NCBI GenBank assembly: GCA_965603475.1
Contig: CBFDDD010000001.1
Span: 111,157-175,156 of the forward strand
DNA from: an uncultured Myxococcales bacterium
GTDB lineage: Bacteria; Myxococcota_A; UBA9160; UBA4427
Length of the DNA stretch: 64,000 nt
Reading direction: 5' to 3'
How positions within the stretch are numbered: position 1 is the stretch's first letter; the number at the start of each line of letters is the position of its first letter. The notes under the pieces are model-generated. The model was not told the DNA's origin. It ran no database searches and was given only the letters and a program-made list of their open reading frames with translations. Of this stretch, positions 37,039 to 54,652 are shown piece after piece. Both the position numbers and the translations under genes were made by a program.

Positions 37039-37254
37039 TCAGCCGAGCTGATTCAAGATTTCCGAATCTTCGGGGAAGCGGCCTTCGTCATGTTTCGAGA
37101 AGATGAGCTTTCCATCCACCTCGACGTCAAAAATTCCACCTCGACCAGCGATTAGCTCGGGCGTGATTTCGTGTTTCTGCTGGATCTTGGCCGCCAGACT
37201 GGCGGCCCGGGGTTTGAAGTTTCAACTCGCGCAGTATGTAATTCGGATGAGCAT
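37039..37254 (-). CDS. SelW/Rdx-family selenoprotein (71 aa, Sec at codon 11, CxxU)
   Basis: Absent from the ORF track because it is split by TGA 37222-37224. GGGAGG RBS before ATG 37254. Reads MLIRITYCAS-U-NFKPRAASLAAKIQQKHEITPELIAGRGGIFDVEVDGKLIFSKHDEGRFPEDSEILNQLG. CxxU sits at the family redox motif and the C-terminal G.GG.F.V...G.LIFSK...G.FP pattern is present. Confidence 0.8.
37189..37207 (-). promoter_or_regulatory. putative bacterial SECIS hairpin for the SelW-like gene
   Basis: Minus strand GGCCGCC-AGUCU-GGCGGCC: 7-bp stem, GU in the loop, starting 14 nt after the UGA. Confidence 0.6.
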
Positions 37255-37299
37255 TTTTTCCTCCCGAGCCGGATCCTAGTTGAAGCGATCCCCTCAACC

Positions 37300-38625
37300 T
37301 TATCCCTCGTCGACGCCCTTGGGCGCTTGCTGCTTCATGAATCCGAACATGTAGCCCGCCACACGACGCATCTGGATTTCTTCCGCGCCCTCTGTGATGC
37401 GATATCGGCGGTGGTGACGGTAGATGTGTTCGAAGGGCTTGTGACGCGAATAGCCGAGCCCCCCGTGGACCTGCATTGCGCGATCCGCCGCGTTACAGCA
37501 GAGCCGATTCGACCAGTAATTACACATCGAGACCTTGTCCGAGACCGAGAATGCGCCGTACTCGTCCATCATCCAGGCCGTCTTGTGAATTAGAGCGCGC
37601 AACATTTCACACTGGGTCTGTAGCTCGACGAGTGGGAATTGAATGGCCTGATTGGTGGCCAATGGTTTGCCAAAGGGCTTGCGAACCTGGGCATACTCGA
37701 CAGACTGATCGATGCAGAACTGGGCGGCACCGAGGCTCGAGGCCGCCTGGCGGATTCGGTTTTCGTTGAAGAAGTGCTGCACGACGGCAAGCCCCCGGCC
37801 TTCGCCGCCGAAGATCGCGTCGTCCGGGACCACGACGTCGGTGAACGACACCCGGCCGTGGTCCGTTGGCATGTTGAAGGTCCAGAGCATTTCTTCGATC
37901 TTTACGCCCGGCGCATCCATCGGTACCAGGAAGGCCGTGATTCCTCGGCCATCGCCCGCCTTACCACTCGTTCGAGCCATGACCATGTCGTACTTGGCCT
38001 TGTGGATCCCGGTATTCCAGGTTTTCTCGCCGTTGATGCGCCAGCTGTCGCCCTCGCGTACAGCGACCGTCTCCATATGTGTGGCATCGGAGCCATGCTC
38101 GGGTTCGGTGATTCCGAAGGCAAAGCCGCGCTGGCCTGTTGCCATGGCGTCGACCCATTCGGCCTGTTGGGCCTCGGTCCCGTACTCGAGCATCAACAGC
38201 AGGCCCACGTTGTTGCCTACGATCGAATGTTCGTTCTGGAGGTCATTGTGAAGTCCGAGGCCGCGACGTGCCAGATGCTCGCGAATGATCGCCATGCCGA
38301 GGTTGTTCCCATCGCGTCCGCCGTATTTCTTGGCGAGGGGATAGCGAAAATGTCCGGCCGCATCGGCAAGTCGTCGCGCCTCCGCAAGGAGCGCCTCCCA
38401 TACTTCGTTGGGAAGCCCGCCTCGCTCCCAATCGGTGCGCGCATCTTCGCGGCGATGATCGAAGAAGCGGATATTGTCGTCCTGTTGTTCGAGGGGCAGG
38501 ATTTCACGCTCGATAAAGGCATCGAGTTCATCGAGGTAGGCTGCGAGGTCTTTGGGGATGTCGAAATTCAAGGGGATGTCCTTCTGGTTGACGGGCTTCC
38601 GGGTGGTGGAATCGGCGTTAGGCAT
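37300..38625 (-). CDS. acyl-CoA dehydrogenase family protein
   Basis: 441 aa ACAD fold. Catalytic context RITEGAEEIQ. Confidence 0.9.
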   Translation of the reverse strand: MPNADSTTRKPVNQKDIPLNFDIPKDLAAYLDELDAFIEREILPLEQQDDNIRFFDHRREDARTDWERGGLPNEVWEALLAEARRLADAAGHFRYPLAKKYGGRDGNNLGMAIIREHLARRGLGLHNDLQNEHSIVGNNVGLLLMLEYGTEAQQAEWVDAMATGQRGFAFGITEPEHGSDATHMETVAVREGDSWRINGEKTWNTGIHKAKYDMVMARTSGKAGDGRGITAFLVPMDAPGVKIEEMLWTFNMPTDHGRVSFTDVVVPDDAIFGGEGRGLAVVQHFFNENRIRQAASSLGAAQFCIDQSVEYAQVRKPFGKPLATNQAIQFPLVELQTQCEMLRALIHKTAWMMDEYGAFSVSDKVSMCNYWSNRLCCNAADRAMQVHGGLGYSRHKPFEHIYRHHRRYRITEGAEEIQMRRVAGYMFGFMKQQAPKGVDEG

Positions 38626-38742
38626 CTTCCGGGCGATTTCGTGAGAATTCTACCACGCCTGGCGCTCTGGTCTGATGGAATCTCTCTTCGGTCCCGCTAC
38701 CCGCCATCTGCTATCCATTCTGTACTCTCAGGAGGCCGCCTG

Positions 38743-39645
38743 ATGCCCGATTCACCGATTACGCACCGCAGCTTCGTTTCCTACATCGATCGTACCCGTG
38801 AGTACTATGCAGCACAGGGCTACGAAAGGCCCTACCGCTGGGCACACCATGCGTCCGTTCCCTTTGCGAAACTCGAGAAACCCCTCGCCGAGTCGCGTGT
38901 CGCGGTCGTCACGACCGCGAGCCCATTCGTCGATCCGGCTGCGCGCGAAGATGTCGTCGGCGACGGCAAGCAGGTCTGGTCGGGTGAAACCGCCGTCACA
39001 CCGGATCGGCTCTACACCGATGATCTCGCATGGGACAAGGAAACCACACACACCAACGACGTAGAATCCTTCGTTCCGCTCGGTTCTCTGCGCGCGTTCG
39101 TCAGGGAGGGTCGCATCGGATCGCTCGCCAAACGCTTCCACGGTGTGCCGACGGACTACAGCCAGCGTCGTACCCTCGAACAAGACGCGCCAGAGATCCT
39201 CGCCCGATGCCGAGAGGACGCGGTCGATATCGCACTGCTCGTCCCGCTCTGACCCGTCTGTCACCAGACCGTGAGTCTGGTCGCACGCGTATTGGAAGAG
39301 AACGGCATCCCGACCGTCGTCGTCGGCTCCGCACGCGACATTGTGGAAGAGTGCGGCGTTCCACGTTTCCTCTTCACTGATTTTCCGCTCGGAAACCCGT
39401 GTGGCAAGCCAGACGACGGCATGATGCAGCGCGACATAGTCGGCTACGCGTTCGATCTTCTCGAAACGGCTCGCCTTCCCCGGACGACCGTACAGACACC
39501 GTTCATCTGGGGGGAAGACGCTTCATGGAAGGAACGTTACGCGCGGGTCGACGCGGAGGCTTCTGAGCGCCTTCGCCAGGCCGGCAATGCGAGGCGCGTT
39601 GAGCAGGAACACGCGAAAGCGACAGGCCGCGCCCGATCGACGTAG
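38743..39645 (+). CDS. glycine/sarcosine/betaine/D-proline reductase selenoprotein B (GRDB) family protein, Sec at codon 170
   Basis: AGGAGG RBS before ATG 38743. The tail of track ORF 37639..39252 and ORF 39271..39645 share a frame and are joined by TGA 39250-39252. Reads ...DAVDIALLVPL-U-PVCHQTVSLVARVLEENGIPTVVVG...FPLGNPCGKP, collinear with the GrdB Sec region. Confidence 0.8.
39263..39281 (+). promoter_or_regulatory. putative bacterial SECIS hairpin for the GrdB-like gene
   Basis: ACCAGAC-CGUGA-GUCUGGU: 7-bp stem, GU in the loop, starting 10 nt after the UGA. Confidence 0.6.
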
Positions 39646-39705
39646 AGGGGTGGAGAGGGAGGTCGCAGAATCGGGCATTTCCCTGCGACGGTCCGGCGTG
39701 AGTCT

Positions 39706-39714
39706 TGATATAAT
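39706..39714 (+). promoter_or_regulatory. extended -10 element TGATATAAT just upstream of the plsB start
   Basis: Consensus TATAAT with an upstream TG, only 5-8 nt before GTG 39720 / ATG 39723, and no SD sequence. This suggests a leaderless or very short-leader mRNA. Confidence 0.3.
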
Positions 39715-39719
39715 CGTTC

Positions 39720-42188
39720 GTGATGCCCGACGTCGATTTTCGATCCGAATCCAAGTCCAAGGTCATGGCCCCGCGTCATGAAGAGCCCGTCTGGCCGGAG
39801 ACGGCAGGCGGGGACGTCGTTTTCCTGATCGACGCAGCCAGTCGCTTCGAGACCAGACTCCTGCATGCCTGGATCGCGCGCCATCGTGCGGATTCCGCCG
39901 CTTCCGGCGCGAAGGTGGAGATCTTGACGCTTCCATCCTCACGTCGTCGACGTGGACGCCTGGATCCCGGATTGGAACCGATCCTGGCTTCGGGGGATGA
40001 TCCGCAGTTGGTGCCGCTGCGCATTGCGTGGCTCGCCCCCGAACGAGAGGGCCGCCGCGAAGTCAGGCCTTCGGACTTGTTGACCCTGGCGGATCCGCGA
40101 GATCCGGACCGACTCCGCGAGCGCTACCTCTATTGGCGGACGCCCGAACGTTGTCGGATCGTGTTGGGGCAGTCAGCACCTGTTTCGGCGGTGCGCAGGC
40201 GTTGGCGTCGGGCGGCTGGAGCGGATTCGGGTAACACGCAGAGCTTCCCCGACTACGTTGCGCGGCAGGCCGCGTTGACACTGGAGCGAGCCGAACGACA
40301 CATACGCGGTGCGCGCTACAAGGTGCCCAGCCTGGTTCGCGAGGACATCCTCGCGAGGCCCGCATTTCAGGGTGAGCTCCATCATCTGGCCCGCAAATTG
40401 GGTCGGACTGATGCGAGAGTGTTGGTTGAAGCGACAGCGGATCTTCGTGAGATCGCGGCTGGCCATACGCCGCTCGCGATCGACATCGTCGTCCGGCTCT
40501 GGCGCTTCATGTATTCCCGCGGCTACGACGAAAAGCTCCGTTACGATCCTGCCGAGCTACGAGTCGTGAGCGCGCTCGCGCAACAGCATCCGGTCGTTTT
40601 TCTGCCGTCACACAAATCAAACCTCGACCATGGCGTGCTGCAAACGATCCTGCACGAAAATGGCATGCCGCCCAATCATACGGCCGGCGGAATCAACATG
40701 AATTTCTTTCCGCTCGGACCGCTCGTGCGGCGGAGTGGGATCTTCTTCATTCGGCGTAGCTTCAAGGACGACGAGGTCTACAAGCTCGTCCTGCGTCACT
40801 ACGTCGACTATCTGATCTCGAAGCGTTTTCCTCTCGAGTGGTATATCGAAGGGGGTCGCTCCCGATCCGGCAAACTCCTGCCGCCGCGCTTCGGCTTGTT
40901 GGCGTACGTGGTCGATGCCTATCAGCGAGGGCATAGCGACGATGTCTATCTCGTGCCGGTCTCGATCTGTTACGACCAGATCTCCGATGTCTCCGACTAC
41001 GTCGCGGAGCAGCGCGGAGGCGACAAGGAGAGCGAGGGGTTTGGCTGGTTCGTTCGTTTCATTCGCAGGCTGGGGCGGCGTTACGGGCGGATCAATATTC
41101 GCTTCGGAGAGCCGGTCTCGCTGGCCACGTCGCTGGGGCCCCCGAATCCGGAGGCCTTGCCCGATCCGAACGAGATGAATGTCGAATTACAGAAGCTGGC
41201 TTTCGAAGTCTGTGTCCGAATCAATCGGGCTACGCCGATTACGCCGGTCTCGCTGATTTGCCTGGCCTTGTTGAGTCGGGGAGATCGCGCACTCACTCGA
41301 ACGGATATGGTCGATGCGCTCGTGAACCTGCGGGGCTACGTGGAGCGTCGTAAGCTTCCGACGTCGGAGGAACTCGACCTGGATACGGCCGAGGGTGTCG
41401 CGCGAACGATGGACGCGTTGGTCGAGAGCGGTCTACTGACGATCTACGACGAGGGCCCGGAACCCGTGTATGGAATTGCGTCGGGTCAGCATCTGGGCGC
41501 CGCCTACTACCGAAACACCATCATCCACTATTTCCTGACGGGCGCGATCGCCGAAGTTTCCCTGCTCCGTGCGGCCGAAAAGGACGTAGAGGACAGGTCG
41601 GCGGCGTTCTGGGAAGCGGCTCTGGACTTACGGGATCTCCTCAAGTTCGAGTTCTTCTTCGCAGAGAAGGACGTCTTCCAGGCGGAGATTCGTCGGGAGC
41701 TCAGCCATCACGTCGTGGACTGGGAGGCGCGACTCGACGAGGGCGCAGAGGCGATTCAGGAAATATTCATCCGCATCAGCCCACTCCACGCTCATCGAGT
41801 GCTTCGCCCCTTCCTCGAGGCCTACCGCGTGGTGGGCGATGTACTGGAATCTCACGACACGGGGGAACCGATCGACGAAGCGGCATTCCTTTCGGAATGC
41901 CTGGGACTCGGCCATCAGTACACGCTACAGCGCCACATCAAGCGACAAGAATCGGTTTCAAAGGTGCTCTTCGGGACTGCCGTCAAACTCGCGCGCAATC
42001 GCGAACTCTGGGAGCCTGGTGAGTCGAAACAGGAGCTGAAAGACGCACGCAGGCGCTTCGCAGTGGAGATACGTGCTGCGATCCGCCGTGTCGACGCCGT
42101 CGAGGCGATGGTTCGAGCGCGTCTAGCGGGTCTCGCCCCCCCGGCCGCATCGGTCGCGACGAGTCGGAAGAACCCGACGGACACCTGA
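39720..42188 (+). CDS. plsB: glycerol-3-phosphate 1-O-acyltransferase PlsB
   Basis: About 820 aa. Acyltransferase HX4D block VFLPSHKSNLDH, plus FFIRRSF and YIEGGRSRSGK motifs. Confidence 0.9.
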   Translation: MMPDVDFRSESKSKVMAPRHEEPVWPETAGGDVVFLIDAASRFETRLLHAWIARHRADSAASGAKVEILTLPSSRRRRGRLDPGLEPILASGDDPQLVPLRIAWLAPEREGRREVRPSDLLTLADPRDPDRLRERYLYWRTPERCRIVLGQSAPVSAVRRRWRRAAGADSGNTQSFPDYVARQAALTLERAERHIRGARYKVPSLVREDILARPAFQGELHHLARKLGRTDARVLVEATADLREIAAGHTPLAIDIVVRLWRFMYSRGYDEKLRYDPAELRVVSALAQQHPVVFLPSHKSNLDHGVLQTILHENGMPPNHTAGGINMNFFPLGPLVRRSGIFFIRRSFKDDEVYKLVLRHYVDYLISKRFPLEWYIEGGRSRSGKLLPPRFGLLAYVVDAYQRGHSDDVYLVPVSICYDQISDVSDYVAEQRGGDKESEGFGWFVRFIRRLGRRYGRINIRFGEPVSLATSLGPPNPEALPDPNEMNVELQKLAFEVCVRINRATPITPVSLICLALLSRGDRALTRTDMVDALVNLRGYVERRKLPTSEELDLDTAEGVARTMDALVESGLLTIYDEGPEPVYGIASGQHLGAAYYRNTIIHYFLTGAIAEVSLLRAAEKDVEDRSAAFWEAALDLRDLLKFEFFFAEKDVFQAEIRRELSHHVVDWEARLDEGAEAIQEIFIRISPLHAHRVLRPFLEAYRVVGDVLESHDTGEPIDEAAFLSECLGLGHQYTLQRHIKRQESVSKVLFGTAVKLARNRELWEPGESKQELKDARRRFAVEIRAAIRRVDAVEAMVRARLAGLAPPAASVATSRKNPTDT

Positions 42189-42191
42189 TCA

Positions 42192-42210
42192 GATTTCCCA
42201 CATGGAAATC
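42192..42210. terminator. hairpin between convergent plsB and CBS genes
   Basis: GATTTCC-CACAT-GGAAATC, 7-bp stem. No clear U-tract on either strand. Confidence 0.3.
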
Positions 42211-42226
42211 GATTCACCCCTGGCGT

Positions 42227-42700
42227 TCAGCGAAGCAGCGCCACCATGTCGAAGACCGAGACGAGGCCAACCAACGGACCTTCGTCATTGTCCGGGTCGA
42301 GTACCAATACCCGGTGGATCCGATGCTTCAAGAAGAGATCCGCAATCTCGTTGATCGGTGTATCTCGGCGGACGGAAATCGCACCCGCCGTCATGACTTG
42401 GGAGACACTCCGCTGCGTCAGGCGATCTTCGAACTCTTCGATGTCCGTCATCCACTCTTCGGGCGCAAACGAGGAGCCGGCCTCGTAGTAGTGTAGATCC
42501 ATGACGGCGTCGTCGTGTGTTTCATTCGCGATACGCAGCAGATCTCGGGCACTGATGACGCCGACGACGTCCCCGCCATCGTCGACGACCGGCGCTCCAC
42601 TGATGTCCTCCTGGACGAAGAGTCGATAGACCGCCAAGAGTGGCGAATCCGCCGCCACCGTGACGACCCGTTGTTCCATGATGTCTTCGGCGACCGTCAC
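42227..42700 (-). CDS. CBS-domain pair protein
   Basis: Two CBS repeats: IMEQRVVTV...GAPVVDDGGDVVGVISARDLL; VMTAGAISV...HRIHRVLVLD...LVGLVSVFDMV. GTG start with AAGGAG RBS. Confidence 0.8.
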   Translation of the reverse strand: MTVAEDIMEQRVVTVAADSPLLAVYRLFVQEDISGAPVVDDGGDVVGVISARDLLRIANETHDDAVMDLHYYEAGSSFAPEEWMTDIEEFEDRLTQRSVSQVMTAGAISVRRDTPINEIADLFLKHRIHRVLVLDPDNDEGPLVGLVSVFDMVALLR

Positions 42701-42926
42701 GATGTACTCCTTCTGGGCTGAATTGGATCCTCAGCCTACATCATGTCGTCCCACGTGGGTTCTCAGGCCCGAGGAATAGTTGAGTATTGCGAAGCGATGG
42801 TGCATCCCATCGCTGCGGCACGCCCAGGCGCGAATGTGGCGGTTTGGCACAATCTGCCGGTCGATCTGTGATCCGAAAATATGACGCATCTCGCCTATGA
42901 TCGGACCGAGACGGAGGAGAGACTCG

Positions 42927-44597
42927 ATGAAGACGGATGTAGAGATTGCGAGGGAGGCAACGCCTCGCCCGATCGTAGATGTGGCTCGGGATCTCGGGCT
43001 CTCGGAGGAGGATCTTCACCCCTATGGTCGCGATGTCGCGAAGGTCGACCTCGGCGTCCTCGACAGACCACGTGCTCTGAAGGGCAAGTCGCGGCTCGTG
43101 CTGGTCTCGGCGATCACGCCGACCCCGGCGGGCGAGGGCAAGACGACGACCTGTGTCGGTCTGGCAGACGCACTCTCGCGAATCGGAGAGTCGGTTTGCC
43201 TTGCTCTTCGCGAGCCCTCGTTGGGGCCCTGCATGGGTGTAAAGGGGGGCGCTGCTGGCGGGGGTTATAGCCAGGTGATCCCCATGGAGCGCATCAATTT
43301 GCATTTTACAGGGGACTTCCACGCCATCACCTCTGCCAATAACCTGCTGTCTGCGATGCTCGACAATCATATTCACCAGGGCAACGCGCTCGACATCGAT
43401 GTGCGTCGTATCCTGTGGCGTCGGGTTCTGGATCTGAACGATCGGGCACTGAGGCATGCCATCGTGGGGCTGGGCGGACCGACTCATGGCGTCCCGCGCG
43501 AAGCGGGTTTCGATATCACGGCCGCCTCGGAAGTCATGGCCATGCTGTGTCTGGCGACGGACGCAGATGATCTACGCGCGAGACTCGATCGAACCCTCGT
43601 GGCTTTCAACCGCAGCGGTGGGACGGTGACCGCAAGCGATCTGGGTGCGAGCGGAGCGATGCACGCACTACTCCACGAAGCTCTGCGTCCGAATCTCGTT
43701 CAGACCCTCGAAGGAACCCCCGCCTTCGTCCACGGGGGTCCCTTTGCCAACATCGCCCACGGCTGCAATAGCGTTTTCGCTACGCGGATGGCGATGCACA
43801 CCGCGGATTGGTGTATTACCGAAGCCGGATTCGGCTTTGATCTCGGCGCCGAGAAATTCTTCGATATCAAGTGTCAGGGCGCTGGGCTCGATACGGCAGC
43901 CGTCGTGCTCGTGGCAACGATCCGTGCGCTCAAGATGCATGGAGGCTGTAAGAAAAGCGAACTGGGGGAACCGAATACCGAGGCAGTGAGACGCGGTCTC
44001 CCCAATCTGGAGAAGCACCTCGAAAGCATTCATTGCTTTGGCGAGCGTTCGATCGTCGCGATCAACCGCTTCGCCGCTGATACCGCCGAGGAAGTTGCTG
44101 TCGTACGCGAGTGTTGTGAGGCGCTTGGTATCCCGGTCGCGGAAACCGACCACCACGCACGTGGCGGAGAGGGCGCTGAGAATCTTGCCCGGACCCTCGT
44201 GCAACACGCAGAGGCATCGAATACGCCCTTTAGCCCGCTCTACGATTGGAACGACGATATCAAGGACAAGATTTCGGCCGTCACCCGAGCAATGTATGGA
44301 GCCGATTCGGTGTCCTACACCAAGAAAGCGCAACGGGATCTGCGCGAGGTCGAAAGCCTGGGCTACGCGGGGCTTCCGGTCTGCATTGCGAAGATTCCGG
44401 GTTCCCTGTCCGACGATGCCAAACTACGCGGACGGCCCCGTGATTTCGAGATCACAGTGAGAGGTGTTCAGGTGAACGCAGGTGCTGGTTTCCTCGTGGT
44501 TCTCACCGGCGACATCATGCGAATGCCGGGCCTTCCGCGACGTCCCCTGGCCGAATCGATCGATGTGGAGAATGGTCAAATTGTTGGCCTCTCGTAG
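42927..44597 (+). CDS. fhs: formate--tetrahydrofolate ligase
   Basis: DVEIAREATPRPI..., P-loop ITPTPAGEGKTTT, and GGAAGGGYSQV are all diagnostic. GGAGGAGAG RBS before ATG 42927. Confidence 0.95.
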   Translation: MKTDVEIAREATPRPIVDVARDLGLSEEDLHPYGRDVAKVDLGVLDRPRALKGKSRLVLVSAITPTPAGEGKTTTCVGLADALSRIGESVCLALREPSLGPCMGVKGGAAGGGYSQVIPMERINLHFTGDFHAITSANNLLSAMLDNHIHQGNALDIDVRRILWRRVLDLNDRALRHAIVGLGGPTHGVPREAGFDITAASEVMAMLCLATDADDLRARLDRTLVAFNRSGGTVTASDLGASGAMHALLHEALRPNLVQTLEGTPAFVHGGPFANIAHGCNSVFATRMAMHTADWCITEAGFGFDLGAEKFFDIKCQGAGLDTAAVVLVATIRALKMHGGCKKSELGEPNTEAVRRGLPNLEKHLESIHCFGERSIVAINRFAADTAEEVAVVRECCEALGIPVAETDHHARGGEGAENLARTLVQHAEASNTPFSPLYDWNDDIKDKISAVTRAMYGADSVSYTKKAQRDLREVESLGYAGLPVCIAKIPGSLSDDAKLRGRPRDFEITVRGVQVNAGAGFLVVLTGDIMRMPGLPRRPLAESIDVENGQIVGLS

Positions 44598-44764
44598 CCA
44601 GCGATCATCGATCGATTCGCGTGCGGTTCTGCGCCTCTGACCGGGGGCGAAATGCCGCTCTTCATTCGCGAGTCTCGCCGGAAATACCGGGTACGAAGGT
44701 AGAAAACGGCACACGATTTGCTTTACTTCCAGCTACGGGATGAACCCGATCGGAGGACCGTCCA

Positions 44765-45180: not shown

Positions 45181-46431
45181 TCAGTCGAAGAACTCGAGTT
45201 CTCGCATGAAGCGAAGCATCTGCTCCAGATACTCGCCACGGTCGAGATGAAGTAGATGGTTGCCGGGGAACCAGTGAATCCGACATCGATCCCAATGGTC
45301 CCAGAGTAGCCGGGAATGTTTGGGCGGAGCCATACGGTCGCCGACGCCACCGATGATCATGAGACGTTCCTTGGCGATCGCTGGTCGATGGGTGAGCGGC
45401 GTCGTGGGCGCGAGAAGTCGACGGCCGTCCTTGATCGATAGGTCGAGTGCTGTGAGTCCCATCCGAATCGCGAGTCCCGTCGGCTGCCATTCGAGGATCA
45501 GGTCGAAGGGGCTCACGACCGGCACGTTGGGAATCGCGAACTGAAGACGATCTTCGACGCTGGCGAGCAGCGCTGCGGTCCAGCCTCCGAGGCTGATGCC
45601 CGTGATGCCTACCTTTGTGACGCCACGTTCTTCCTCGAGCCAGTCGATCAGGGCGCGTAGCTCGCAAACGGCTTGCGCCATGTGCTCGTTGATCGCACCG
45701 AGTCCGCAGGCAAAGAAGCCGTGACCGCTGTAGAGAGACCAGGGCTCCTGGCGCAATCCGTGATGGGGCAGGGTGTAGAGAATGACGTCGCAGCCCTTCT
45801 CGTAGTACGACTGCAACGCAAAGAAGCGTTCATTGATCCAATAGGGATCGGCCATGAAGCCGTGTACCGCGATGAGCGTCGGGCGCGGCCCGTCGCCCGG
45901 TCGATCGTGTCGCCAATGGCGTGCGCGCGCTACCCGGCTGTGATCGTGTCGATTGTAACGCTCTCGATAATTGGGGCTGAAGGGCTGGTAGGGCGACTCG
46001 AACTTGATGCCCTCACAGACGCCGTTGGATGGTTTGAAATATCCCGAGCGCGGTGAGTAGCAGGTGACATCAATTTTTTCAGAAGGCGGCGAAAACATGC
46101 CTGCGGGATCGTTTTCGACCAGGTCGAGATAGCTCTGCAGGTCTTGTCTGCTTTCTGCAGCCCGTAGCCCGAGTCGGCCATGCGGGAGTGGCAACAAGCT
46201 TGCGGGTAGGGCGGTCAGGCTGAGCAGGCTGGCACCGGCGGTCCGAATCGCGAGATCGCCGAGCGCGGTGACGTTCACACGGAGCCAGTCGCGCGGCTCC
46301 AACTCGAAGCCCTCGGGTCGCTGTGCAAAATTGCTTTCGAGGTTCTCCCACCAGAGGCCCTCGGGCATGATCGAAGGAGAGTGGGCAAACGTCTCATGAG
46401 CAATTCGCGAAACGATACTCGAACGTGGCAT
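45181..46431 (-). CDS. alpha/beta hydrolase (ABHD18/DUF2048-like)
   Basis: Nucleophile elbow GISLGG. Start ATG 46431. The longer track ORF (to 47394) overlaps the permease gene and is R-rich. Confidence 0.75.
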   Translation of the reverse strand: MPRSSIVSRIAHETFAHSPSIMPEGLWWENLESNFAQRPEGFELEPRDWLRVNVTALGDLAIRTAGASLLSLTALPASLLPLPHGRLGLRAAESRQDLQSYLDLVENDPAGMFSPPSEKIDVTCYSPRSGYFKPSNGVCEGIKFESPYQPFSPNYRERYNRHDHSRVARARHWRHDRPGDGPRPTLIAVHGFMADPYWINERFFALQSYYEKGCDVILYTLPHHGLRQEPWSLYSGHGFFACGLGAINEHMAQAVCELRALIDWLEEERGVTKVGITGISLGGWTAALLASVEDRLQFAIPNVPVVSPFDLILEWQPTGLAIRMGLTALDLSIKDGRRLLAPTTPLTHRPAIAKERLMIIGGVGDRMAPPKHSRLLWDHWDRCRIHWFPGNHLLHLDRGEYLEQMLRFMRELEFFD

Positions 46432-46548
46432 GAAGAGTCCTCGTAACGGACGGCTCGAAGCAGACAACCCTCCCCGTGAGAGCTGACCTTCTCGAAATTC
46501 TCGTTCCGACGATACATGGCGTTGGCGTCGTCGTGCTACTTCTAAGAG

Positions 46549-47949
46549 ATGGCTACAGATGACGAGGGGGGAATCGAGGTCGCGGTTTCGCTCGAGCGCG
46601 GTCTCGGCGTCGTAAGCACATGCATGCTCGGGCTGGGCGCGATGATCGGGGCGGGCATCTTCGTCTTGATCGGACACGCATCTGCGCTTGCAGGTCCGGC
46701 GATCGTGCTCGCTTTTTTGCTCAATGCCGGTTTCGCTGTCACTGTGGGGGCTTGCTATGCAGAGCTTGCCGTTGCGTTTCCGCGGACGGGTGGTGCGTAT
46801 GTCTGGGTCGGTGAGGCCTTCGGGCGACGGATCGGCTTCCTGGCAGGCTTCTGTTCGTGGGGCGCGCAGACGATCGCGTGTGCTCTCTACGCACTCGGAT
46901 TTGGCATGTTTGCCGTCGAAATCGTGCGGCGTGCGAGTCCTACGACGACCTGGGTCACGCCCGCATCCGAGTCCGGTCTGTCTCCCCTCATTTTTGCGCT
47001 GCTGCTGCTGAGTTCGCTGGCGGCGATCAATATCCGAGGCGCCCGGGAAACCGGGCGCGCCGAGATCGCGATTACGGGTCTCAAGATCGTACTCCTCATC
47101 GCACTCGTCGCGAGCGGTGCCTTCGCGCTCGCTGGCAGCCCGGATCCGGTGGAACCGTTTCGCCCCTTCCTGCCCGAGGGCATGCGCGGTGTGTTGGCGG
47201 CGATGGGACTGATCTTCATCGCATTCGAGGGCTACGAGATCATCGCGCAGACGCGTGAGGAGGTCGTTGCTCCCGCGCGCACGCTTCCGCGGGCAATCTT
47301 CATGTCGATTGGAATCGCGTGCGTGCTCTATGTTGCCGTTGCGATCGCGATGTTCGCTGCGATCAGTCCGCCAGCCGGTGTCGCAGCGCATCAATATCTT
47401 GGCACCCTCGGTGAGCTCGGACTCGTGGAGGCGGCTGGGATATTGCTTCCAGCCGGAGACAAGGTGCTCCTCATTGCCGGTTTGGCGAGTACGGCGAGCG
47501 CCCTCAACGCGACGATCTACAGTGCGAGCCGGATCGCCCTCGCCATGGGCAGAGAAGGCGACTTTCCGGAGCGCGTTGCACGGGTCGATCCAAAGCGTCG
47601 TACACCAGTCGCTGCGATCGCACTCACCGCCTTCGCGTGCACCGCGGCGACGATCGTGTTGCCGCTGCCAGATGTCGCGGCTGCTGCGAACCTGCTCTTC
47701 TTCCTTGTTTTCATGAGCGTCGCCGCCGCTTTGATCCGACTTCGTCTGTCTCGTCCGGCACTTCCGCGCCCCTTCCGTGTGCCCTTCGTTCCGTGGTGGC
47801 CTGGCACGGCGTTGGTTGGCGGCGTCGTACTCTCGATTCCGTTATTCGATCTGAGCCCAGCGGGTTGGACCTTCGCTGGCGTGTGGGTCGCGATCGGATT
47901 CGCGCTCGCTCCACAAGAGGATGGAGCGAATGAGAAGAGCGGGGGGTAA
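46549..47949 (+). CDS. APC-family amino acid permease
   Basis: About 12 TM segments. GLGAMIGAGIFVLIG signature. Confidence 0.85.
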   Translation: MATDDEGGIEVAVSLERGLGVVSTCMLGLGAMIGAGIFVLIGHASALAGPAIVLAFLLNAGFAVTVGACYAELAVAFPRTGGAYVWVGEAFGRRIGFLAGFCSWGAQTIACALYALGFGMFAVEIVRRASPTTTWVTPASESGLSPLIFALLLLSSLAAINIRGARETGRAEIAITGLKIVLLIALVASGAFALAGSPDPVEPFRPFLPEGMRGVLAAMGLIFIAFEGYEIIAQTREEVVAPARTLPRAIFMSIGIACVLYVAVAIAMFAAISPPAGVAAHQYLGTLGELGLVEAAGILLPAGDKVLLIAGLASTASALNATIYSASRIALAMGREGDFPERVARVDPKRRTPVAAIALTAFACTAATIVLPLPDVAAAANLLFFLVFMSVAAALIRLRLSRPALPRPFRVPFVPWWPGTALVGGVVLSIPLFDLSPAGWTFAGVWVAIGFALAPQEDGANEKSGG

Positions 47950-47998
47950 ACGGGAGAGCGACCGGCGCCGAGTGCGTGCAGGGTGGGAATCTGGGAAC

Positions 47999-48637
47999 AT
48001 GAGCAAGATGCGATGGTGGTTGTCATTAATGTCGATTCTCGTCTTGCTCGGCGGAATCGGCGTGGTCGGAAGCGATCGACTCGAACGAGACAACGATTTT
48101 TGCAACGCCTGCCACCTCCCCGGCGATACGCCACTGCATCTCGAGATCAGGCGGGTTTTCGATCGCGTCATTCCGCAGAATCTCGCTGGCGTACATGGCC
48201 GCGGTTGGGTGGAGGAGCGTGAGGAGCCAGACTTTCGTTGCATCGATTGCCACGCCGGCAGGGGAGTGCTCGAACGAGGCGCGGTCAAGATTCTCTCCGC
48301 CCGCGACGGTCTTCGCTACCTGATCGGCAAATTCGACGAGCCAGAGGAAATGTCTTTCGATCTTTCGAAGCAGACCTGTCGGAGCTGCCATCCCAGTTTC
48401 CGACATTCAGCCGCACCCGGCTGGACGCTGAGGGCCTACCACGGCGATCCAAACCACGATGGGGTCGATGCGCCCCGATGCGTTCGTTGTCATTCGGTAC
48501 ACGAGGCAGACGGAGATGCCTTCGCCTATTTCATGAATCGAGAGCGAGTCGACCAGCAGTGTCGCGAATGCCATGTCCCGGGCGGCCCGAAGCAGATTCA
48601 ATCGTTGGTCGAAGCAGGAGAAGATCGCAGCGGGTGA
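47999..48637 (+). CDS. membrane-anchored multiheme c-type cytochrome (five CxxCH; NapC/NirT-like topology)
   Basis: N-terminal TM helix WWLSLMSILVLLGGIGVVG. Heme sites CNACH, CIDCH, CRSCH, CVRCH, CRECH. Confidence 0.75.
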   Translation: MSKMRWWLSLMSILVLLGGIGVVGSDRLERDNDFCNACHLPGDTPLHLEIRRVFDRVIPQNLAGVHGRGWVEEREEPDFRCIDCHAGRGVLERGAVKILSARDGLRYLIGKFDEPEEMSFDLSKQTCRSCHPSFRHSAAPGWTLRAYHGDPNHDGVDAPRCVRCHSVHEADGDAFAYFMNRERVDQQCRECHVPGGPKQIQSLVEAGEDRSG

Positions 48638-48698
48638 AAATGGAGCTCCGACAGCCGGCTCTTCGACGCTTCCGGCATCAAGTTCTAGTCTTTATGGG

Positions 48699-49454: not shown

Positions 49455-49486
49455 CGCGATCGGCGGCGATTTACAGCGATGGAGGG

Positions 49487-50164
49487 CTAAGGGACGTCGA
49501 ACTCGATCACGATGACCTCGAAGAGTCCTGGCGTCAGCATGCCTCTGCGCTCCAGGACTCGCCCCCCCTCTTCGACGCGAACCATGTAGACGCCCTCACT
49601 CTTGGCGTCGCCCGAGACGCTTGTTTCTTCGCAGCGTCCGTGAAAGTCGACACCGACTCGGTAGCGCCCGGCGATCGGGCTTGGGAAATAGATTGCTTCG
49701 ACTCGTGGTGAAGGGTCGCTACAGCGACGATCGTCGAGGAGTCGCCCGCCGCTGCGCGTTGGTGTGTTCGCGAAATAGGCCGATTCGTGAAGAGGATCCG
49801 TGACGAAGAGGTCGAGATCTGCCACATCATCGAAGGCGAGTCGGACCAGCAGGCCGCTGGAGAGATCGTCGGGCGCCGGCTCGGCGAGCACGGCCTGGAG
49901 GCGGGTGAGGCGAGCGGTCTGCTCGGCATCGAAGTCTCGACTGCGAGCTTCGGTCGTCGACGGCGCTCGAACCGGCGCAATCGGACGTGATGGCCCGCAG
50001 GCGGTCGCCATGAAAAGAACTGTAAGCGCGAGCAGGCTACAAAGGGTGCGCCGCGTCGATGTGGGCGGGCATAAGCACCAGGTGATACCTTTTTGAACGT
50101 GGCGTCTTGCGGGGTGTTGTACAGGGTGCAATAGGCTCTGTAGTACGAAAGGATGGCTCGACAT
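49487..50164 (-). CDS. hypothetical lipoprotein (YfaP/DUF2135-like C-terminal domain?)
   Basis: Lipobox LFMATACG. DLDLFVTDPLHESAYFANTPTRSGGRLLDD...GRYRVGV resembles the DUF2135 pattern. Start uncertain. Confidence 0.45.
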   Translation of the reverse strand: MSSHPFVLQSLLHPVQHPARRHVQKGITWCLCPPTSTRRTLCSLLALTVLFMATACGPSRPIAPVRAPSTTEARSRDFDAEQTARLTRLQAVLAEPAPDDLSSGLLVRLAFDDVADLDLFVTDPLHESAYFANTPTRSGGRLLDDRRCSDPSPRVEAIYFPSPIAGRYRVGVDFHGRCEETSVSGDAKSEGVYMVRVEEGGRVLERRGMLTPGLFEVIVIEFDVP

Positions 50165-50270
50165 GTCTTTCCCGTTGATCTTTTCGGTCTCTACTCGGGT
50201 GGCTCGTTGGCGCTTCGGATGCGCTTCGTTGCGTTCCCATAGCCTATCATCGCTACGCGGATTCGGTTGC

Positions 50271-52079
50271 ATGATCGTTTTGCTTGTGGCTGTCGTACCG
50301 AGCTCAGCGAAGTCGGCTGAGCAGACGATTCGCGGGCATGTGCGCGATGCTGAAGGGGCACCGATCGCTGCCGCCATGGTCTCGTTGCGTCAGGGTACGC
50401 CATTCCATGAACGAACAGTCTTTTCGGACCATGCCGGTGCCTATCAGAGCACATTGAAGGCCGGTGAGGCGTTTGCAGTACGAGTGCGACGCATCGGTTG
50501 GCGCGACCTTGGCCACGCCGATGTCGCGCCACTCTCAGAGGAGGCCGCGGCATCCTACGACTTCAGCCTCGAGCGCGAAACGGATGCCGCTGCCCTTGCC
50601 GCTCAGCTGCCCGCGAATCGTTGGTTCAGTCTTCTACTCCAGGAAATCGATGACGACGTGCAGCGCGAGGAATTCGTGCGACAGTGCACCTATTGTCATC
50701 AGCAGGGCAACGTCGCAACGCGTCGTTTGCGAAACGACGAAGAGTGGCAGAAAGTGCTCTCGTTGATGGCGCGCATGGGCGGTACGTTGTCACCGGAGCT
50801 GCGTGAGCAGATTCCGGCGTTGTGGCGACAGGCCTATGACCCCGAACGCTCCGTTGCGGCTCTGGTCGATACGACTCCTGGAGTTGAACTCGCAGCCGTG
50901 CCCGAAGCGAAAGTGTTGCGTGCCTCTGTCGACGAATGGGCGCTCGGGCATGAAGCTTCGATGCAGCACGATCTCGCTGTGCATCCCGACGGCCGCGTCT
51001 ATAGCGTCGACATGATGCAGGATGAGCTCTATCGCTTCGATCCGAAGACGGAAGCTCGGGACTCTTTTCGCCTGCCACACGGCGACCTTCCCATGGGCGG
51101 CGTATTCGGCGCGGCCAGCGGTCCGCTCCCGCCCTATGCGAACTCGTATGTGGGTCCCCACTCTCTTCAGGTCGCGCCAGACGGGGCGATCTGGATCACC
51201 CTCGCGCTCGGCAGTCAGCTCGCTCGCTTCGACACCGGCACAGAAGAGTGGGAGATTCATGAGCTCGAAGAAGGCATCTATCCGCACACCCTGCGCTTCG
51301 ACCATGAGGGCCGGATCTGGTACACGATGGCGGTCTCGAACCATGTCGGAATGCTCGATCCGGCCACCGGCGAGCAGAAGAGCATCAGTCTGCCCGCGAC
51401 CAGCTTTGGCCAGGCTTTCGCGCTGCGCATGATTCCTATCGGACTCTGGCTGAGCCAATACATCGACATCTCTGGCATGGCCAGCGGTGAGGGCGGTGGA
51501 GGGGGCGTCCGTATGCCCGTTCCCTATGGCATCGACGTCGCGCCGGACGGCCATATCTGGTTCAGTCAGCTCAATGAAAACAGGATCGGCCGCATCGATC
51601 CAGAAACCCTCGACGTGGAGATGATCGAGACGCCCTTCAGCGCGCCACGTCGATTGCGTTTCGATTCACAGGGACGCCTCTGGATCCCGGGTTTCTCCTC
51701 GGGACTGATCTCGCGTTTTGATCCGGAGACCCGCGAGTTCAAGAGCTACCCACTGCCGATCGAGCCGCTCGGTACCGAGACACCCTACGCGCTCAATGTG
51801 CAGCCCCATACGGATTCGGTCTGGATCTGTGGCACCAACAGCGACAGCTTGATCCGGTTCGAGCCGGATCAGGAGGCGTTCACCGTGTATCCGCTGCCGA
51901 CTCGGGTGACCTACACCCGCGAAATCGACTTCGATGACGAGGGTCGAGTCTGGACTTCCAACTCGAATCTTCCCGCTTGGCAGATCGAAGGCGGGATGCC
52001 CCGGATCCTGCGCCTCGACCCGTCGTTCGTACCCGCAGCCGCGAGCCAGCTGAGGGTGACATTGGTGGAAGAACGCTAG
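50271..52079 (+). CDS. secreted fusion protein: carboxypeptidase-regulatory-like domain + single CxxCH heme site + Vgb/NHL-like beta-propeller repeats
   Basis: IRGHVRDAEGAPIAAAMVSL (CarboxypepD_reg-like). CTYCH. Repeated GPHSLQVAPDGAIWIT / PHTLRFDHEGRIWYT / PYGIDVAPDGHIWFS blades. Start uncertain (50163-50271). Confidence 0.65.
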   Translation: MIVLLVAVVPSSAKSAEQTIRGHVRDAEGAPIAAAMVSLRQGTPFHERTVFSDHAGAYQSTLKAGEAFAVRVRRIGWRDLGHADVAPLSEEAAASYDFSLERETDAAALAAQLPANRWFSLLLQEIDDDVQREEFVRQCTYCHQQGNVATRRLRNDEEWQKVLSLMARMGGTLSPELREQIPALWRQAYDPERSVAALVDTTPGVELAAVPEAKVLRASVDEWALGHEASMQHDLAVHPDGRVYSVDMMQDELYRFDPKTEARDSFRLPHGDLPMGGVFGAASGPLPPYANSYVGPHSLQVAPDGAIWITLALGSQLARFDTGTEEWEIHELEEGIYPHTLRFDHEGRIWYTMAVSNHVGMLDPATGEQKSISLPATSFGQAFALRMIPIGLWLSQYIDISGMASGEGGGGGVRMPVPYGIDVAPDGHIWFSQLNENRIGRIDPETLDVEMIETPFSAPRRLRFDSQGRLWIPGFSSGLISRFDPETREFKSYPLPIEPLGTETPYALNVQPHTDSVWICGTNSDSLIRFEPDQEAFTVYPLPTRVTYTREIDFDDEGRVWTSNSNLPAWQIEGGMPRILRLDPSFVPAAASQLRVTLVEER

Positions 52080-52134
52080 GCGGTCGACGCTTCGTCTTCC
52101 GTTGGCGTCATTGATCCAATAGCGAGGGAAGCCC

Positions 52135-53340
52135 ATGTCCGTGGATCTACGAACGCGTTCGGATACCGACCAGGCTCCGGTCGACGTCGGGCCATTCTTT
52201 CGTGAAACCCTGCCAGGGCTGCTCGACGTCAACCATTCAATGCTTGCGTCGGGCGCGAGCGAACTGTCGCTCGACGCGTTCTGCATCGAGACGGACGGCG
52301 AGCCCTGGACGCTATCCTGGATCGGAGACCGCGTTTCGGTTTCGCCGGGGCACGACGGTCAGGGCCGGGTACGGCTGACCGCCGAGCAGCTCTCCGACAT
52401 CGTGAACGACCAGAGTACGCCGATTGCCCTGATGAGCAACGCGATCCTGGATATGCCGGAGGGCGGCCTGCCGGACTTCCTGAACTGGTGGCTGGTACTC
52501 CGTTCGGTGATCGACGCTCGTCCGATTCACGCACGCGGCGATGTGAGATTCAAAACGGACGTTCGTCGGAGCTTCACACTGGACGATTCCGATGAGGAGA
52601 TGCGCGCGTTTCTCGAGGACGCGGGCTACCTGCACATCAAAGGTCTTTTCAGCCGGGCCGAGATGGCGGAGGTCGAAGCGGATTTTCCAGTTGCCGCACC
52701 GCACTTCGAGAAGGGTGACCCGAAGGCGTGGTTCGCAACGACACGGGATGGAGTCGAGCATCTGGTGCGCATGGAGGGCTTCGATCGATATTCGCCGGCG
52801 ACCGTGGCTCTGATCGACGAGGATCGCTTCCAACGCATCGGAGACATCCCTGGAATTGGACACGTCAGTGCACGCAAGCCGGGTGCTCGCGTCGGCGCGC
52901 TGAGCAAGCCCATCGGTGTTGTGAAGGGCATCTCTGATGTGCCTTGGCACAAGGACTGCAGCCTGGGTCGTCATTCCTATGAGTGCTGCTCCCTCACGGT
53001 CGGCATCTCAGTGACGGGTGCGGATGCGGAATCGGGACAACTGCGCGTGGTGCCGGGATCCCACCGCGCGCTGGTATGGCCGGCACCGTGTATCCAGCCT
53101 GGCCTCGACCTGGAAGCGATCGATCTACCCACTCGAACGGGCGACGTGACCGTCCATCTGAGCTGCACACAACATATGAGTCAGGCGCCGAGCGTTCGAA
53201 CGCGCAAGGTGCTCTACACGGGGTTCGGTCAAAAGCCCGCCGATGCCGAAGCGGCCCAGCGAAATCGTCTGCGCCTCGATGCCGTTCGCAGCAAGACCCA
53301 TACGAGGGTTTCACAGGAGCCCGGCTATCAGGGCGAATGA
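52135..53340 (+). CDS. PhyH-family dioxygenase with N-terminal extension (SCP2-like?)
   Basis: GYLHIKGLFS, PWHKD (HxD), VVPGSHR. Confidence 0.7.
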   Translation: MSVDLRTRSDTDQAPVDVGPFFRETLPGLLDVNHSMLASGASELSLDAFCIETDGEPWTLSWIGDRVSVSPGHDGQGRVRLTAEQLSDIVNDQSTPIALMSNAILDMPEGGLPDFLNWWLVLRSVIDARPIHARGDVRFKTDVRRSFTLDDSDEEMRAFLEDAGYLHIKGLFSRAEMAEVEADFPVAAPHFEKGDPKAWFATTRDGVEHLVRMEGFDRYSPATVALIDEDRFQRIGDIPGIGHVSARKPGARVGALSKPIGVVKGISDVPWHKDCSLGRHSYECCSLTVGISVTGADAESGQLRVVPGSHRALVWPAPCIQPGLDLEAIDLPTRTGDVTVHLSCTQHMSQAPSVRTRKVLYTGFGQKPADAEAAQRNRLRLDAVRSKTHTRVSQEPGYQGE

Positions 53341-53488
53341 CGAGCACGGCCGACCGTGATCAGGAACGGCATCCGACCTCGCTTTGTTTCTAGCCAAAGA
53401 CGAGGCTATGCGGAAGCCAGCGAGCGTTCTCGCGAGTCGTGAAACGTTCTTGGTTGGTGAGGTGGGTGGCAGTCGCTTGGGAAACAAG

Positions 53489-53520
53489 CCGAGGACGCCC
53501 ACCTGGGCGAGCGTCCTCGG
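53489..53520 (-). terminator. rho-independent-type terminator of the cold-shock gene
   Basis: CCGAGGACGC...GCGTCCTCGG 10-bp inverted repeat 16 nt past the csp stop, followed on the minus strand by CTTGTTTCC. Confidence 0.55.
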
Positions 53521-53535
53521 TGAATCCTGAGCGGA

Positions 53536-53730
53536 CTAGACTACGGTGATGTTCTCGGCGCGGGAGCCCTTGGGGCCCTGTCCGATTGTGAACTCGACCT
53601 GCTGGCCTTCGCGCAGATCTTCGTAGCGGACATCCTGGAGCGCAGACATGTGGAAGAAGATTTCTTCACCATCGCCCGCGATGAATCCAAAGCCCTTGTC
53701 CGTAAGTTTCTTGATTGTTCCTTGAGCCAC
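53536..53730 (-). CDS. CspA-family cold-shock protein
   Basis: (M)AQGTIKKLTDKGFGFIAGDGEEIFFHMSAL...: RNP1 KGFGFI and RNP2-like FFH. GTG start with GAAGGAGGG RBS. The longer track ORF upstream is its 5' UTR. Confidence 0.9.
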   Translation of the reverse strand: MAQGTIKKLTDKGFGFIAGDGEEIFFHMSALQDVRYEDLREGQQVEFTIGQGPKGSRAENITVV

Positions 53731-54178
53731 GTTGGCCCTCCTTCTGTGTAGTAAGAGACGTTCCACGGGACCGAACCTTTTTGGCCCGGCACTCGCGGAA
53801 GTTGGCAGTTCTCTGTTGAGCTGTGGTTCGAATTCCAGTCGCCGCGCAGATTCTGTCGTTGGGAAACTGTTTATAGCAGTTAGCGGACGATCGCGATCCC
53901 TCCGATCGAAACTCCTTCCATTCCGGCGTTGAGCGACGGCCGTGAGGAGCGCTCCAGGCGAGTTGATTGGCTTTGAGTGAGAGCAGGACGACACCCGAGG
54001 GGACGGCTTGGCACCGGTCGATCAATTTTCGACCCACAGTGGGGCTGGATCGAGTGGCTCGCCGCAAAATGAAATGGCTCGGCCCGATGGCTTACGAGCG
54101 TGACGCCCACCTCTGCGGAATTCAGGTACCCTCGTCGGGCAATTCAGTCCGTTCCGATCCCACACAGGAGAACGATCA

Positions 54179-54652
54179 ATGTCCAGCCTGCATGATTTCG
54201 AAGCGCCGTCGATCACGGGCGAGCCGATACGGCTCTCCGAGTTCGAAGGCCAGCTCTGCCTCGTCGTCAACGTCGCCAGCCGTTGAGGACTCACTGACCA
54301 GTACGCAGGTCTGCGTACCCTACACGACGACAACGATGGGCTCAGTGTTCTCGGCTTTCCCTGCAATCAGTTCGGTGCCCAGGAACCCGGAACCGACGCC
54401 GAAATTCTCGAGTTCGCCACTTCGAAATACGGGGCGAGTTTCCCGATGTTCTCGAAAATCGAGGTCAACGGCGACGGATCCAGTGAGATTTATCAGTTCC
54501 TCAAGGCGGGTCACCCCGACGAAGAGGGCAAGGAAGATATCGCCTGGAACTTCACTAAATTTCTGGTTGGGCGCGACGGGCAGGTGCTGCAGCGCTTTGC
54601 ACCACAGGTGACGCCCGAGGAGATCGGCGAGGCGGCGAAGGCTCATCTCTAG
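54179..54652 (+). CDS. gpx: glutathione peroxidase, selenocysteine form (Sec at codon 36)
   Basis: AGGAG RBS before ATG 54179. Reads ...LCLVVNVASR-U-GLTDQYAGL...LGFPCNQFGAQEPG...WNFTKFLVGRDG. The track lists only the C-terminal 68 aa (54446..54652). TGA 54284-54286 sits at the catalytic Cys/Sec position. Confidence 0.85.
54301..54318 (+). promoter_or_regulatory. putative bacterial SECIS hairpin for gpx
   Basis: GUACGCA-GGUC-UGCGUAC: 7-bp stem, GU in the loop, starting 14 nt after the UGA. Confidence 0.6.

Follow-up and report, generated by a model that had tools for sequence, protein, structure and literature searches.

Selenocysteine codons with bacterial SECIS-type hairpins in three redox genes of an uncultured Myxococcota-like bacterium, and the selenoproteome of its genome

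Three genes with in-frame TGA codons and their hairpins

The stretch of DNA analyzed here (the window; 64 kb, positions 111157–175156 of contig C1 in the metagenome-assembled genome (MAG) G000, 61% GC) carries three genes with an in-frame TGA, encoding a SelW-like protein, a PrdB/GrdB-like protein and a glutathione peroxidase (GPx). We conclude with high confidence that these TGAs are selenocysteine (Sec) codons in three unrelated redox proteins, each recoded by a bacterial selenocysteine insertion sequence (SECIS; bSECIS for the bacterial class). The MAG (208 contigs, 5.2 Mb, 92.7% complete, 1.7% contamination, 61% GC) represents an aerobic-looking, probably marine, Myxococcota-like uncultured bacterium, and it was compared with the genomes of 40 relatives, of which 24 belong to its genus and 16 to its order. 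An earlier note on this DNA had described three TGA sites with gaps of 14, 10 and 14 nt to perfect 7 bp stems and loops of AGUCU, CGUGA and GGUC, and all of these are present as described; its characterization of the stems as GC-rich is accurate for hairpin 1 (7/7 GC) and not for hairpins 2 and 3 (4/7 GC each, close to the 61% of the genome as a whole).

The SelW-like gene (Rdx family; 37039..37254, minus strand, 71 codons) starts at an ATG at 37254, 6 nt downstream of a GGGAGG ribosome-binding site, and ends with a TGA stop at 37041..37039. The predicted N-terminus is MLIRITYCAS-U-NFKPRAASLAAK..., in which the UGA at 37222..37224 specifies residue 11 and completes a CxxU motif (YCASU; C8-A-S-U11). 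Hairpin 1 (GGCCGCC-AGUCU-GGCGGCC; 37189..37207, minus strand) begins 14 nt after the UGA and can gain an A-U pair, giving an 8 bp stem and a GUC loop. The protein passes both Pfam PF10262 (68.6 bits, cut-off 22.6) and NCBIfam NF041051, 'SelT/SelW/SelH family (seleno)protein' (92.6 bits, cut-off 88). Twenty-two orthologues in the related genomes keep one TGA; an in-frame TGA is absent from distant Cys-type paralogues (30–40% identity), of which the three that were read (L202–L204) all have TGC or TGT at the Sec column. Across the 22 orthologues 91% of the cells in the hairpin alignment are paired, with double changes at three pairs, compared with at most 46% in slid controls. A 1x1 mismatch interrupts pair 5 in most of the relatives and is absent from the window copy.

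The PrdB/GrdB-like gene (38743..39645, plus strand, 300 codons) has an AGGAGG ribosome-binding site upstream, and its UGA at 39250..39252 corresponds to residue 170 in the context DIALLVPL-U-PVCHQTVSLV, forming a UxxC motif (U170-P-V-C173). Hairpin 2 (ACCAGAC-CGUGA-GUCUGGU; 39263..39281, plus strand) follows the UGA at a distance of 10 nt, and the element may extend to 39255..39289 through a lower stem that is conserved in part. In the 41 genomes the TGA is present in about 57 of about 60 homologous matches, and its column is identical in each of the 20 loci examined. In these 20 sequences 94% of the cells are paired (8–46% in slid controls), and there are two-sided changes at pair 15–31 (CG/UA) and pair 19–27 (AU/UA/GC). 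The name 'proline reductase PrdB, pfam07355, UxxC' is used in marine-metagenome papers for a family that is among the commonest marine selenoproteins (PMC2398784, PMC1088965), and the window protein belongs to it. Paralogues on contigs C57, C51 and C164 pass Pfam PF07355 (27.6–44.5 bits) and none of the NCBIfam PrdB/GrdB models (TIGR04483, TIGR01917/8). The function is probably something other than proline reduction. The gene is flanked by genes for an acyl-CoA dehydrogenase and a PlsB-like acyltransferase. A search for the pyruvoyl partner PrdA/GrdE (PF09338), run without a positive control, gave no match in this 92.7% complete MAG and none in any of 14 control genomes either. A PDB sequence search with the protein gave no match.

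The GPx gene (54179..54652, plus strand, 157 codons, AGGAG ribosome-binding site upstream) has its UGA at 54284..54286, placing U36 in the NVASxUG peroxidatic motif (NVASRUG) within VVNVASR-U-GLTDQYAGLRT. Hairpin 3 (GUACGCA-GGUC-UGCGUAC; 54301..54318, plus strand) begins 14 nt after the UGA. The protein passes Pfam PF00255 (127.5 bits, cut-off 27) as one domain covering residues 4–109 and reading through U36; such Pfam domains spanning the TGA, with U at the position of the catalytic Cys, support interpretation of the codon as Sec. Ten Sec orthologues share the TGA at 63–89% amino acid identity, and a second, Cys-type GPx clade (47–60% identity) is present in the same genomes, including the one described here (on C22), with TGC or TGT at the Sec codon in ten paralogues. 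Among the ten Sec orthologues a 21-nt hairpin segment does not vary at all, in contrast to the synonymous sites beside it, and the ten Cys-type paralogues (QYDGLQRLY versus QYAGLRTLH) are unable to form the hairpin. The UGA together with the 21-nt hairpin (54284–54320) is also letter-identical in at least 119 species-representative genomes (hits including loci L061–L140) that are labelled Gammaproteobacteria/Pseudomonadales, Myxococcota, Acidimicrobiales, Binatia, Spirochaetaceae and others, which suggests either a very strong constraint at the RNA level or horizontal spread of the gene with its SECIS.

Chance, consensus, machinery and alternative readings

The frequency with which such hairpins arise by chance was estimated with a strict pattern (gap of 10–14 nt, 7 bp of Watson-Crick pairs, loop of 4–5 nt containing GU) and a wide pattern (gap of 8–16 nt, loop of 3–7 nt, GU optional). 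The strict pattern follows 206 of 853,171 in-frame sense codons (0.024%, 2.4e-4) and two of 917 TGA stops of long open reading frames (ORFs; 0.2%), compared with all three of the window sites and nine of the 31 Sec sites that we recognize in the genome (see below), so that the pattern does not recur at a similar rate after ordinary codons or true stops. Without the GU requirement the frequency is 0.14% of sense codons, and with the wide pattern it is 0.5%. Because these background rates are low, the occurrence of a strict hairpin at three of three window sites is far beyond chance, even allowing for post hoc fitting of the pattern.

The three hairpins were also compared with the bSECIS consensus, which follows the Zhang and Gladyshev model as summarised in PMC13188914. 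This describes an apical loop of 3–9 nt, an upper stem of 4–16 bp, a G in one or both of the first two loop positions, most often with G or U after it, a distance of 16–37 nt from UGA to loop, and a minimum free energy (MFE) of -7.5 kcal/mol or better. In hairpins 1, 2 and 3, respectively, the loop measures 5 (or 3), 5 and 4 nt and reads aGUcu, cGUga and GGUc, the stem has 7 (or 8), 7 and 7 bp, the UGA-to-loop distance is 21 or 22, 17 and 21 nt, and the energy of the bare hairpin is -15.3, -9.1 and -8.5 kcal/mol. They thus agree with the consensus in every one of these features, as the earlier note had proposed in likening them to SelB-type bacterial SECIS elements, and they are typical of the bSECIS class in general. 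Similar features recur among the 30 genomic Sec sites analyzed in this respect: a G is in the first two loop positions at 29 (the exception is C92:6380), the best hairpin has a spacing of 16–25 nt at 27, and a generic contiguous consensus hairpin is present at 26, compared with 7% of sense codons.

The machinery for decoding Sec is present in the same genome and none of it lies in the window, as had been noted from the sequence. The selA gene is on contig C19 (TIGR00474, 536.6 bits) and selB is on C7 (TIGR00475, 277.5 bits), where it encodes a 647 aa protein with GTP_EFTU, SelB beta-barrel, SelB-wing_2 and SelB-wing_3 domains. A Cys-type selD is at C27:38684-40906 (L010:334-2556; TIGR00476, 255.1 bits) and encodes a 740 aa fusion with an N-terminal pyridine-nucleotide-disulfide oxidoreductase (Ndh-SelD); all three scores are above cut-off, and Ndh-SelD fusions with Cys have been described for marine bacteria in the Global Ocean Sampling (GOS) data (PMC2398784). 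A tRNA-Sec with anticodon UCA is at C10:26436-26534 (RF01852, 66.8 bits; reported by ARAGORN as tRNA-SeC (tca)). A selenouridine synthase was not found in the genome. The Sec-decoding trait is therefore complete, with selA, selB, selD and tRNA-Sec(UCA) all located.

A simple model is that each SECIS is a short hairpin in the coding sequence whose apical loop, 17–22 nt after the UGA and containing a G followed by U, would be bound by the C-terminal winged-helix domain of SelB. Loop binding would tether the SelB-GTP-Sec-tRNA(Sec) complex and bring it to the ribosomal A site as the UGA arrives, and the tethered complex would then outcompete release factor 2. The SelB/SECIS mechanism is established for E. 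coli and Moorella, and the presence of the wing_2 and wing_3 domains in SelB and the covariation of the hairpins lend it indirect support here.

There are several points that count against interpreting the three TGAs as Sec codons with SECIS elements. The single-sequence MFEs are unremarkable relative to shuffled sequences in this 61% GC genome (z = -2.15, -0.66 and +0.23 for hairpins 1, 2 and 3). The window PrdB-like copy falls below the PF07355 cut-off (17.5 versus 22 bits) and below those of NCBIfam TIGR04483 (85.6 versus 300) and TIGR01918 (39.2 versus 65.45), and its family assignment is loose. The Sec machinery and the three window genes sit on different contigs of a fragmented 208-contig MAG, and SelB binding and Sec insertion at the three UGAs are inferred. 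We note that ranking of TGA sites by RNAfold energy alone was non-discriminating, with 16 of 271 sites under the 5% control threshold and 13.6 expected. The weight of the evidence rests on position, conservation and covariation, and stability alone proves nothing here.

Three other explanations were considered. The TGAs could be real stops, with the genes being pseudogenes or split genes and the downstream frames relics or small ORFs. Stop-based ORF lists do split the three genes, and at a further candidate site elsewhere in the genome (C6:62390; see below) an ATG lies 0–6 nt after the TGA in two orthologues, such that a stop-restart arrangement is conceivable there. However, the window TGAs are exactly at the catalytic Cys column, single Pfam domains span them, and they are kept in 10–22 orthologues at 44–89% identity with frames intact on both sides; moreover, termination after residue 10 of the SelW-like protein or residue 35 of GPx would leave a product with no fold. 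We thus regard real stops as very improbable. An explanation to which we assign similarly little weight is that the hairpins are a by-product of conserved amino acids and GC-rich codons, with any read-through being SECIS-independent. The z-scores are consistent with this for two of the three hairpins, as is the presence of a generic hairpin at or below -7.5 kcal/mol after 7% of sense codons, but the behavior of the genes is not: the peptide region is similar in the Cys-type GPx paralogues, which nevertheless cannot form the hairpin, synonymous positions are invariant inside the GPx hairpin and vary beside it, and hairpins 1 and 2 have compensatory double changes, including non-synonymous ones. 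Furthermore, 18 of 22 Sec sites recovered in the genome without reference to hairpins have a consensus-type hairpin with its loop 16–25 nt after the UGA, well above the 7% background; the remaining four have stem mismatches, extra G-U pairs or an atypical loop.

The last of these explanations, that TGA is reassigned genome-wide to Trp or Gly or that the in-frame TGAs are assembly errors, is the least credible, and we consider it to have almost no chance of being correct. Nothing specific favors it beyond the assembly being a fragmented MAG. TGA ends 917 of 1583 long ORFs (58%) and is the commonest ordinary stop in the genome, so the code is not reassigned; reading TGA as sense across 36–56 kb of the window merges ORFs implausibly and gives many odd codons per frame, and among 45 tRNAs there is no suppressor tRNA(UCA) other than tRNA-Sec. 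The same TGAs are present in independent assemblies of 10–22 other species, and this conservation in orthologues, together with TGC or TGT in the Cys paralogues, effectively excludes errors, pseudogenes and reassignment alike. Selenocysteine insertion directed by a SECIS remains the interpretation that we favor strongly for all three window genes.

The genome-wide selenoproteome

The whole genome was searched for Sec genes by two routes. A codon model trained on the 1583 long ORFs was used to score both flanks of every in-frame TGA, and hairpins were sought with a loop starting 14–30 nt downstream of each scored TGA; 22 sites have a hairpin score of 18 or more, with 5.6 expected. In the hairpin-free route, 1053 TGA sites that appear coding on both sides were compared with the genome's own six-frame translation, and sites were retained where paralogues have Cys or another TGA at the same column. 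At least 31 Sec genes were identified, 28 with a single Pfam domain across the TGA and three on comparative evidence; the count is a minimum, given the 92.7% completeness of the MAG. Six other sites were left out of the count, three without Pfam support (C11:5417, C77:15221 and C16:29914) and three that appear to be non-coding (C101:3431, C79:708 and C3:103356).

The 28 genes with Pfam support belong to twelve groups. In addition to the SelW-like (C1:148380) and GPx (C1:165440) genes of the window, there are four PrdB-like genes (C1:150406, C57:24133, C51:29424 and C164:2110, with the C1 copy sub-threshold), three Prx genes with TxxU (C15:958, C117:6139 and C92:6380), four Prx-like genes with UxxC/T (C64:5611, C2:57228, C154:349 and C3:44007), and three ResA-like genes with WAxxUGC (C9:50638, C48:10492 and C40:14781). 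PRXL2-like/SDR fusions are encoded at C49:13932 and C13:33393, AhpD/CMD proteins with CxxU at C13:14895, C145:4788, C93:12819 and C108:1608, and AhpD-related proteins with CFYUT at C33:4253 and C61:15602. The others are one UGSC gene (C44:7385), two deiodinase-like genes (C21:31605 and C29:11667) and an ArsC-like gene (C107:3687). The selenoproteome is thus composed nearly all of thiol-peroxidase and thiol-disulfide families. Formate dehydrogenase is usually credited with maintaining the Sec trait; across the whole MAG there is no Sec formate dehydrogenase, and none of 12 molybdopterin oxidoreductase genes has an in-frame stop. Two genes for haem-copper oxidase subunit I are present.

BSepDB contains 57,630 selenoproteins from 16,621 species, with a mean of about 3.5 per Sec-using species (PMC13326102), and the 31 genes here correspond to about nine times that mean. 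This agrees with the earlier proposal of a selenoprotein-rich genome, and the proposal that stop-based annotation undercounts Sec genes is also borne out, as public protein sets hold truncated versions of them. The suggestion that the hairpin geometry is an organism-specific descriptor did not hold, since the geometry is that of the general bSECIS consensus (PMC13188914). A genome scan with the strict pattern does capture nine of the 31 Sec sites (C132 being assessed by inspection), and these are nine real sites among 51 TGA hits compared with about 33 hits expected by chance, so the pattern recovers about 29% of the Sec sites and about 18% of its hits are real. Homology on both sides of the TGA is an indispensable filter.

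Three further candidate families emerged as a by-product of the genome scan. The nearest full-length homologues in the accompanying protein comparison are labelled Myxococcota, with others labelled Deltaproteobacteria and Planctomycetota; the taxonomic placement of the genome draws on these names and on those of the genomes sharing the GPx hairpin. One candidate is a 449 aa fusion of a cysteine-synthase-like pyridoxal phosphate (PLP) enzyme and a rhodanese (C47:25648-26994), with an in-frame TGA at C47:26035 in the PALP domain. The Sec context is ELDDDL-U-PLPGSPEGAIA, the family motif is L-U/C-PAPGxPEGAI, and the corresponding motif in Cys homologues is LCPAPGAPEGAI. The TGA and an invariant hairpin (GGUCCCC-GGA-GGGGGCC) are kept in 14 congeners (L205–L218), Cys is at the Sec column in all 15 full-length homologues (60–75% identity), and public sets hold the Sec forms as 306 aa fragments of the 449 aa enzyme.

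A second candidate is a 777 aa FG-GAP/ASPIC-UnbV protein (C6:62066-62959) in which the TGA at C6:62390 is followed by a strong hairpin in the context GPIEDDV-U-LEMMEG, and about 100 public protein clusters end exactly at the TGA. Among loci L221–L226, one congener keeps the site and the hairpin, and three distant homologues (L223, L225 and L226) carry one in-frame TGA within the match; reading by eye, the TGA in L223 and L225 is a few residues away and is followed by SECIS-like hairpins of different sequence. The non-Sec homologues have L, E or W at the site and no Cys, and this is the site at which the stop-restart arrangement raised above is conceivable instead of Sec. The third candidate is a 136 aa membrane protein (C132:9493-9900) with the TGA at C132:9802 in the motif ATPRCGFT-U (the CGFTU protein). 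Within L228–L234, five relatives keep the TGA and a hairpin of the form GACCACCG-GGN-CGGUGGUC, and one homologue has Cys. Pfam and NCBIfam contain no selenoprotein model for any of the three, and the CGFTU protein has no family in either database. Keyword searches of the selenoproteome literature covered gave no hit to the first two, and none of the three was found in the published selenoprotein family lists examined.

Genomic context and comparison with known systems

The Sec genes of the window are separated by a variety of other genes. An acyl-CoA dehydrogenase (37303..38625, minus strand) lies between the SelW-like and PrdB-like genes, and between the latter and GPx are a PlsB-like acyltransferase (39720..42188), a formate-tetrahydrofolate ligase (42897..44597), an amino acid permease (46549..47949, plus strand) and a multi-haem cytochrome c (47921..48637; five CxxCH motifs). 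Also encoded between Sec genes are a UPF0014 membrane protein, a beta-propeller protein and a PhyH-like dioxygenase. A 737 aa ORF (45181–47394, minus strand) overlaps the permease gene on the opposite strand and has an Arg-rich N-terminal half that is likely to be spurious; only the C-terminal part, which looks hydrolase-like, probably corresponds to the real gene. A fourth Sec candidate in the window, a TGA at 48409 (minus strand), was rejected, having no hairpin, a Phe in its paralogue, and the multi-haem cytochrome c gene on the opposite strand. Three ORFs merged across a single TGA (39720..42488, 42780..44597 and 49800..52079) likewise fail the combined coding and hairpin filters.

The order of the three Sec genes is kept on one contig in congener G011 (C30:33681-39132), and likewise in G012 across contigs C263 and C50. 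The distance between the GPx and PrdB-like genes is 2.2 kb in G011 and 14.5 kb in the window, a difference of about 12 kb. With about 30 Sec genes in 5.2 Mb, finding three within 17 kb is mildly unusual (an estimate of about 0.1 genome-wide), and we do not claim that the trio is a selenoprotein operon. The density in the window (three in 64 kb) is higher than the genome average of about one per 170 kb, and the total cannot therefore be extrapolated from the window.

Much of what is described here is already known, including the mechanism of Sec recoding, all three of the window families and nearly all of the others, and the understanding of Sec decoding is unchanged. What looks noteworthy is the heavy use of Sec in an aerobic-looking lineage without a Sec formate dehydrogenase. 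A broader proposal, for which we see slightly less than an even chance, is that the lineage ranks among the most selenoprotein-rich aerobes known and that at least one of the three by-product families is a genuine uncatalogued selenoprotein family. The consequences are mainly for annotation, in addition to the three candidate families: about 31 genes are each mis-called by stop-based gene finders, either as a fragment or not at all, and redox and antioxidant capacity is under-read in public annotation as a result. The genome also ties an 'orphan' selenoproteome of marine metagenomes to a concrete genome and genus, and shows heavy Sec use in an aerobe in which formate dehydrogenase is not a Sec gene. 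A full-text literature search combining Myxococcota with selenoprotein yielded no relevant report.

The E. coli fdhF SECIS is the archetype of bacterial SECIS elements, and the window hairpins resemble both it and the bSECIS consensus in lying within the ORF just 3' of the UGA, with no essential difference. They depart from the consensus in that all three stems are short and perfect and lack a bulged U, and the spacing is narrow in this genome. The PrdB-like protein has weak homology to the C-terminal half of clostridial GrdB (PF07355), and its Sec likewise lies in a UxxC motif at the corresponding position, although it is far under the equivalog cut-offs for clostridial PrdB/GrdB and its host is an aerobe.

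In composition the selenoproteome matches those of the Sargasso Sea and GOS metagenomes (PMC1088965, PMC2398784), which share the SelW-like CxxU, PrdB UxxC, GPx, Prx TxxU, Prx-like/Trx-like UxxC, AhpD-like CxxU, UGSC, deiodinase-like and ArsC-like families. Those are derived from unlinked metagenome reads, whereas the 31 genes here are in one genome, and three of the families here were not found in their lists. The richest selenoproteomes on record are those of the Olavius algarvensis Delta-1 symbiont (at least 57), a Methylomirabilota MAG (63), Desulfosediminicola (40–46) and Syntrophobacter fumaroxidans (39) (PMC13188914, PMC12013277), and the richest organisms are predominantly anaerobes (PMC13188914). 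The genome described here is like these in having a selenoproteome about ten times the bacterial mean, although 31 is well under the record. Most of these Sec-rich bacteria are anaerobes, with FdhA, Hdr, Grd and hydrogenases among their Sec genes, whereas this genome has no Sec-FdhA, encodes two haem-copper oxidases, and uses Sec almost only in thiol-redox defence.

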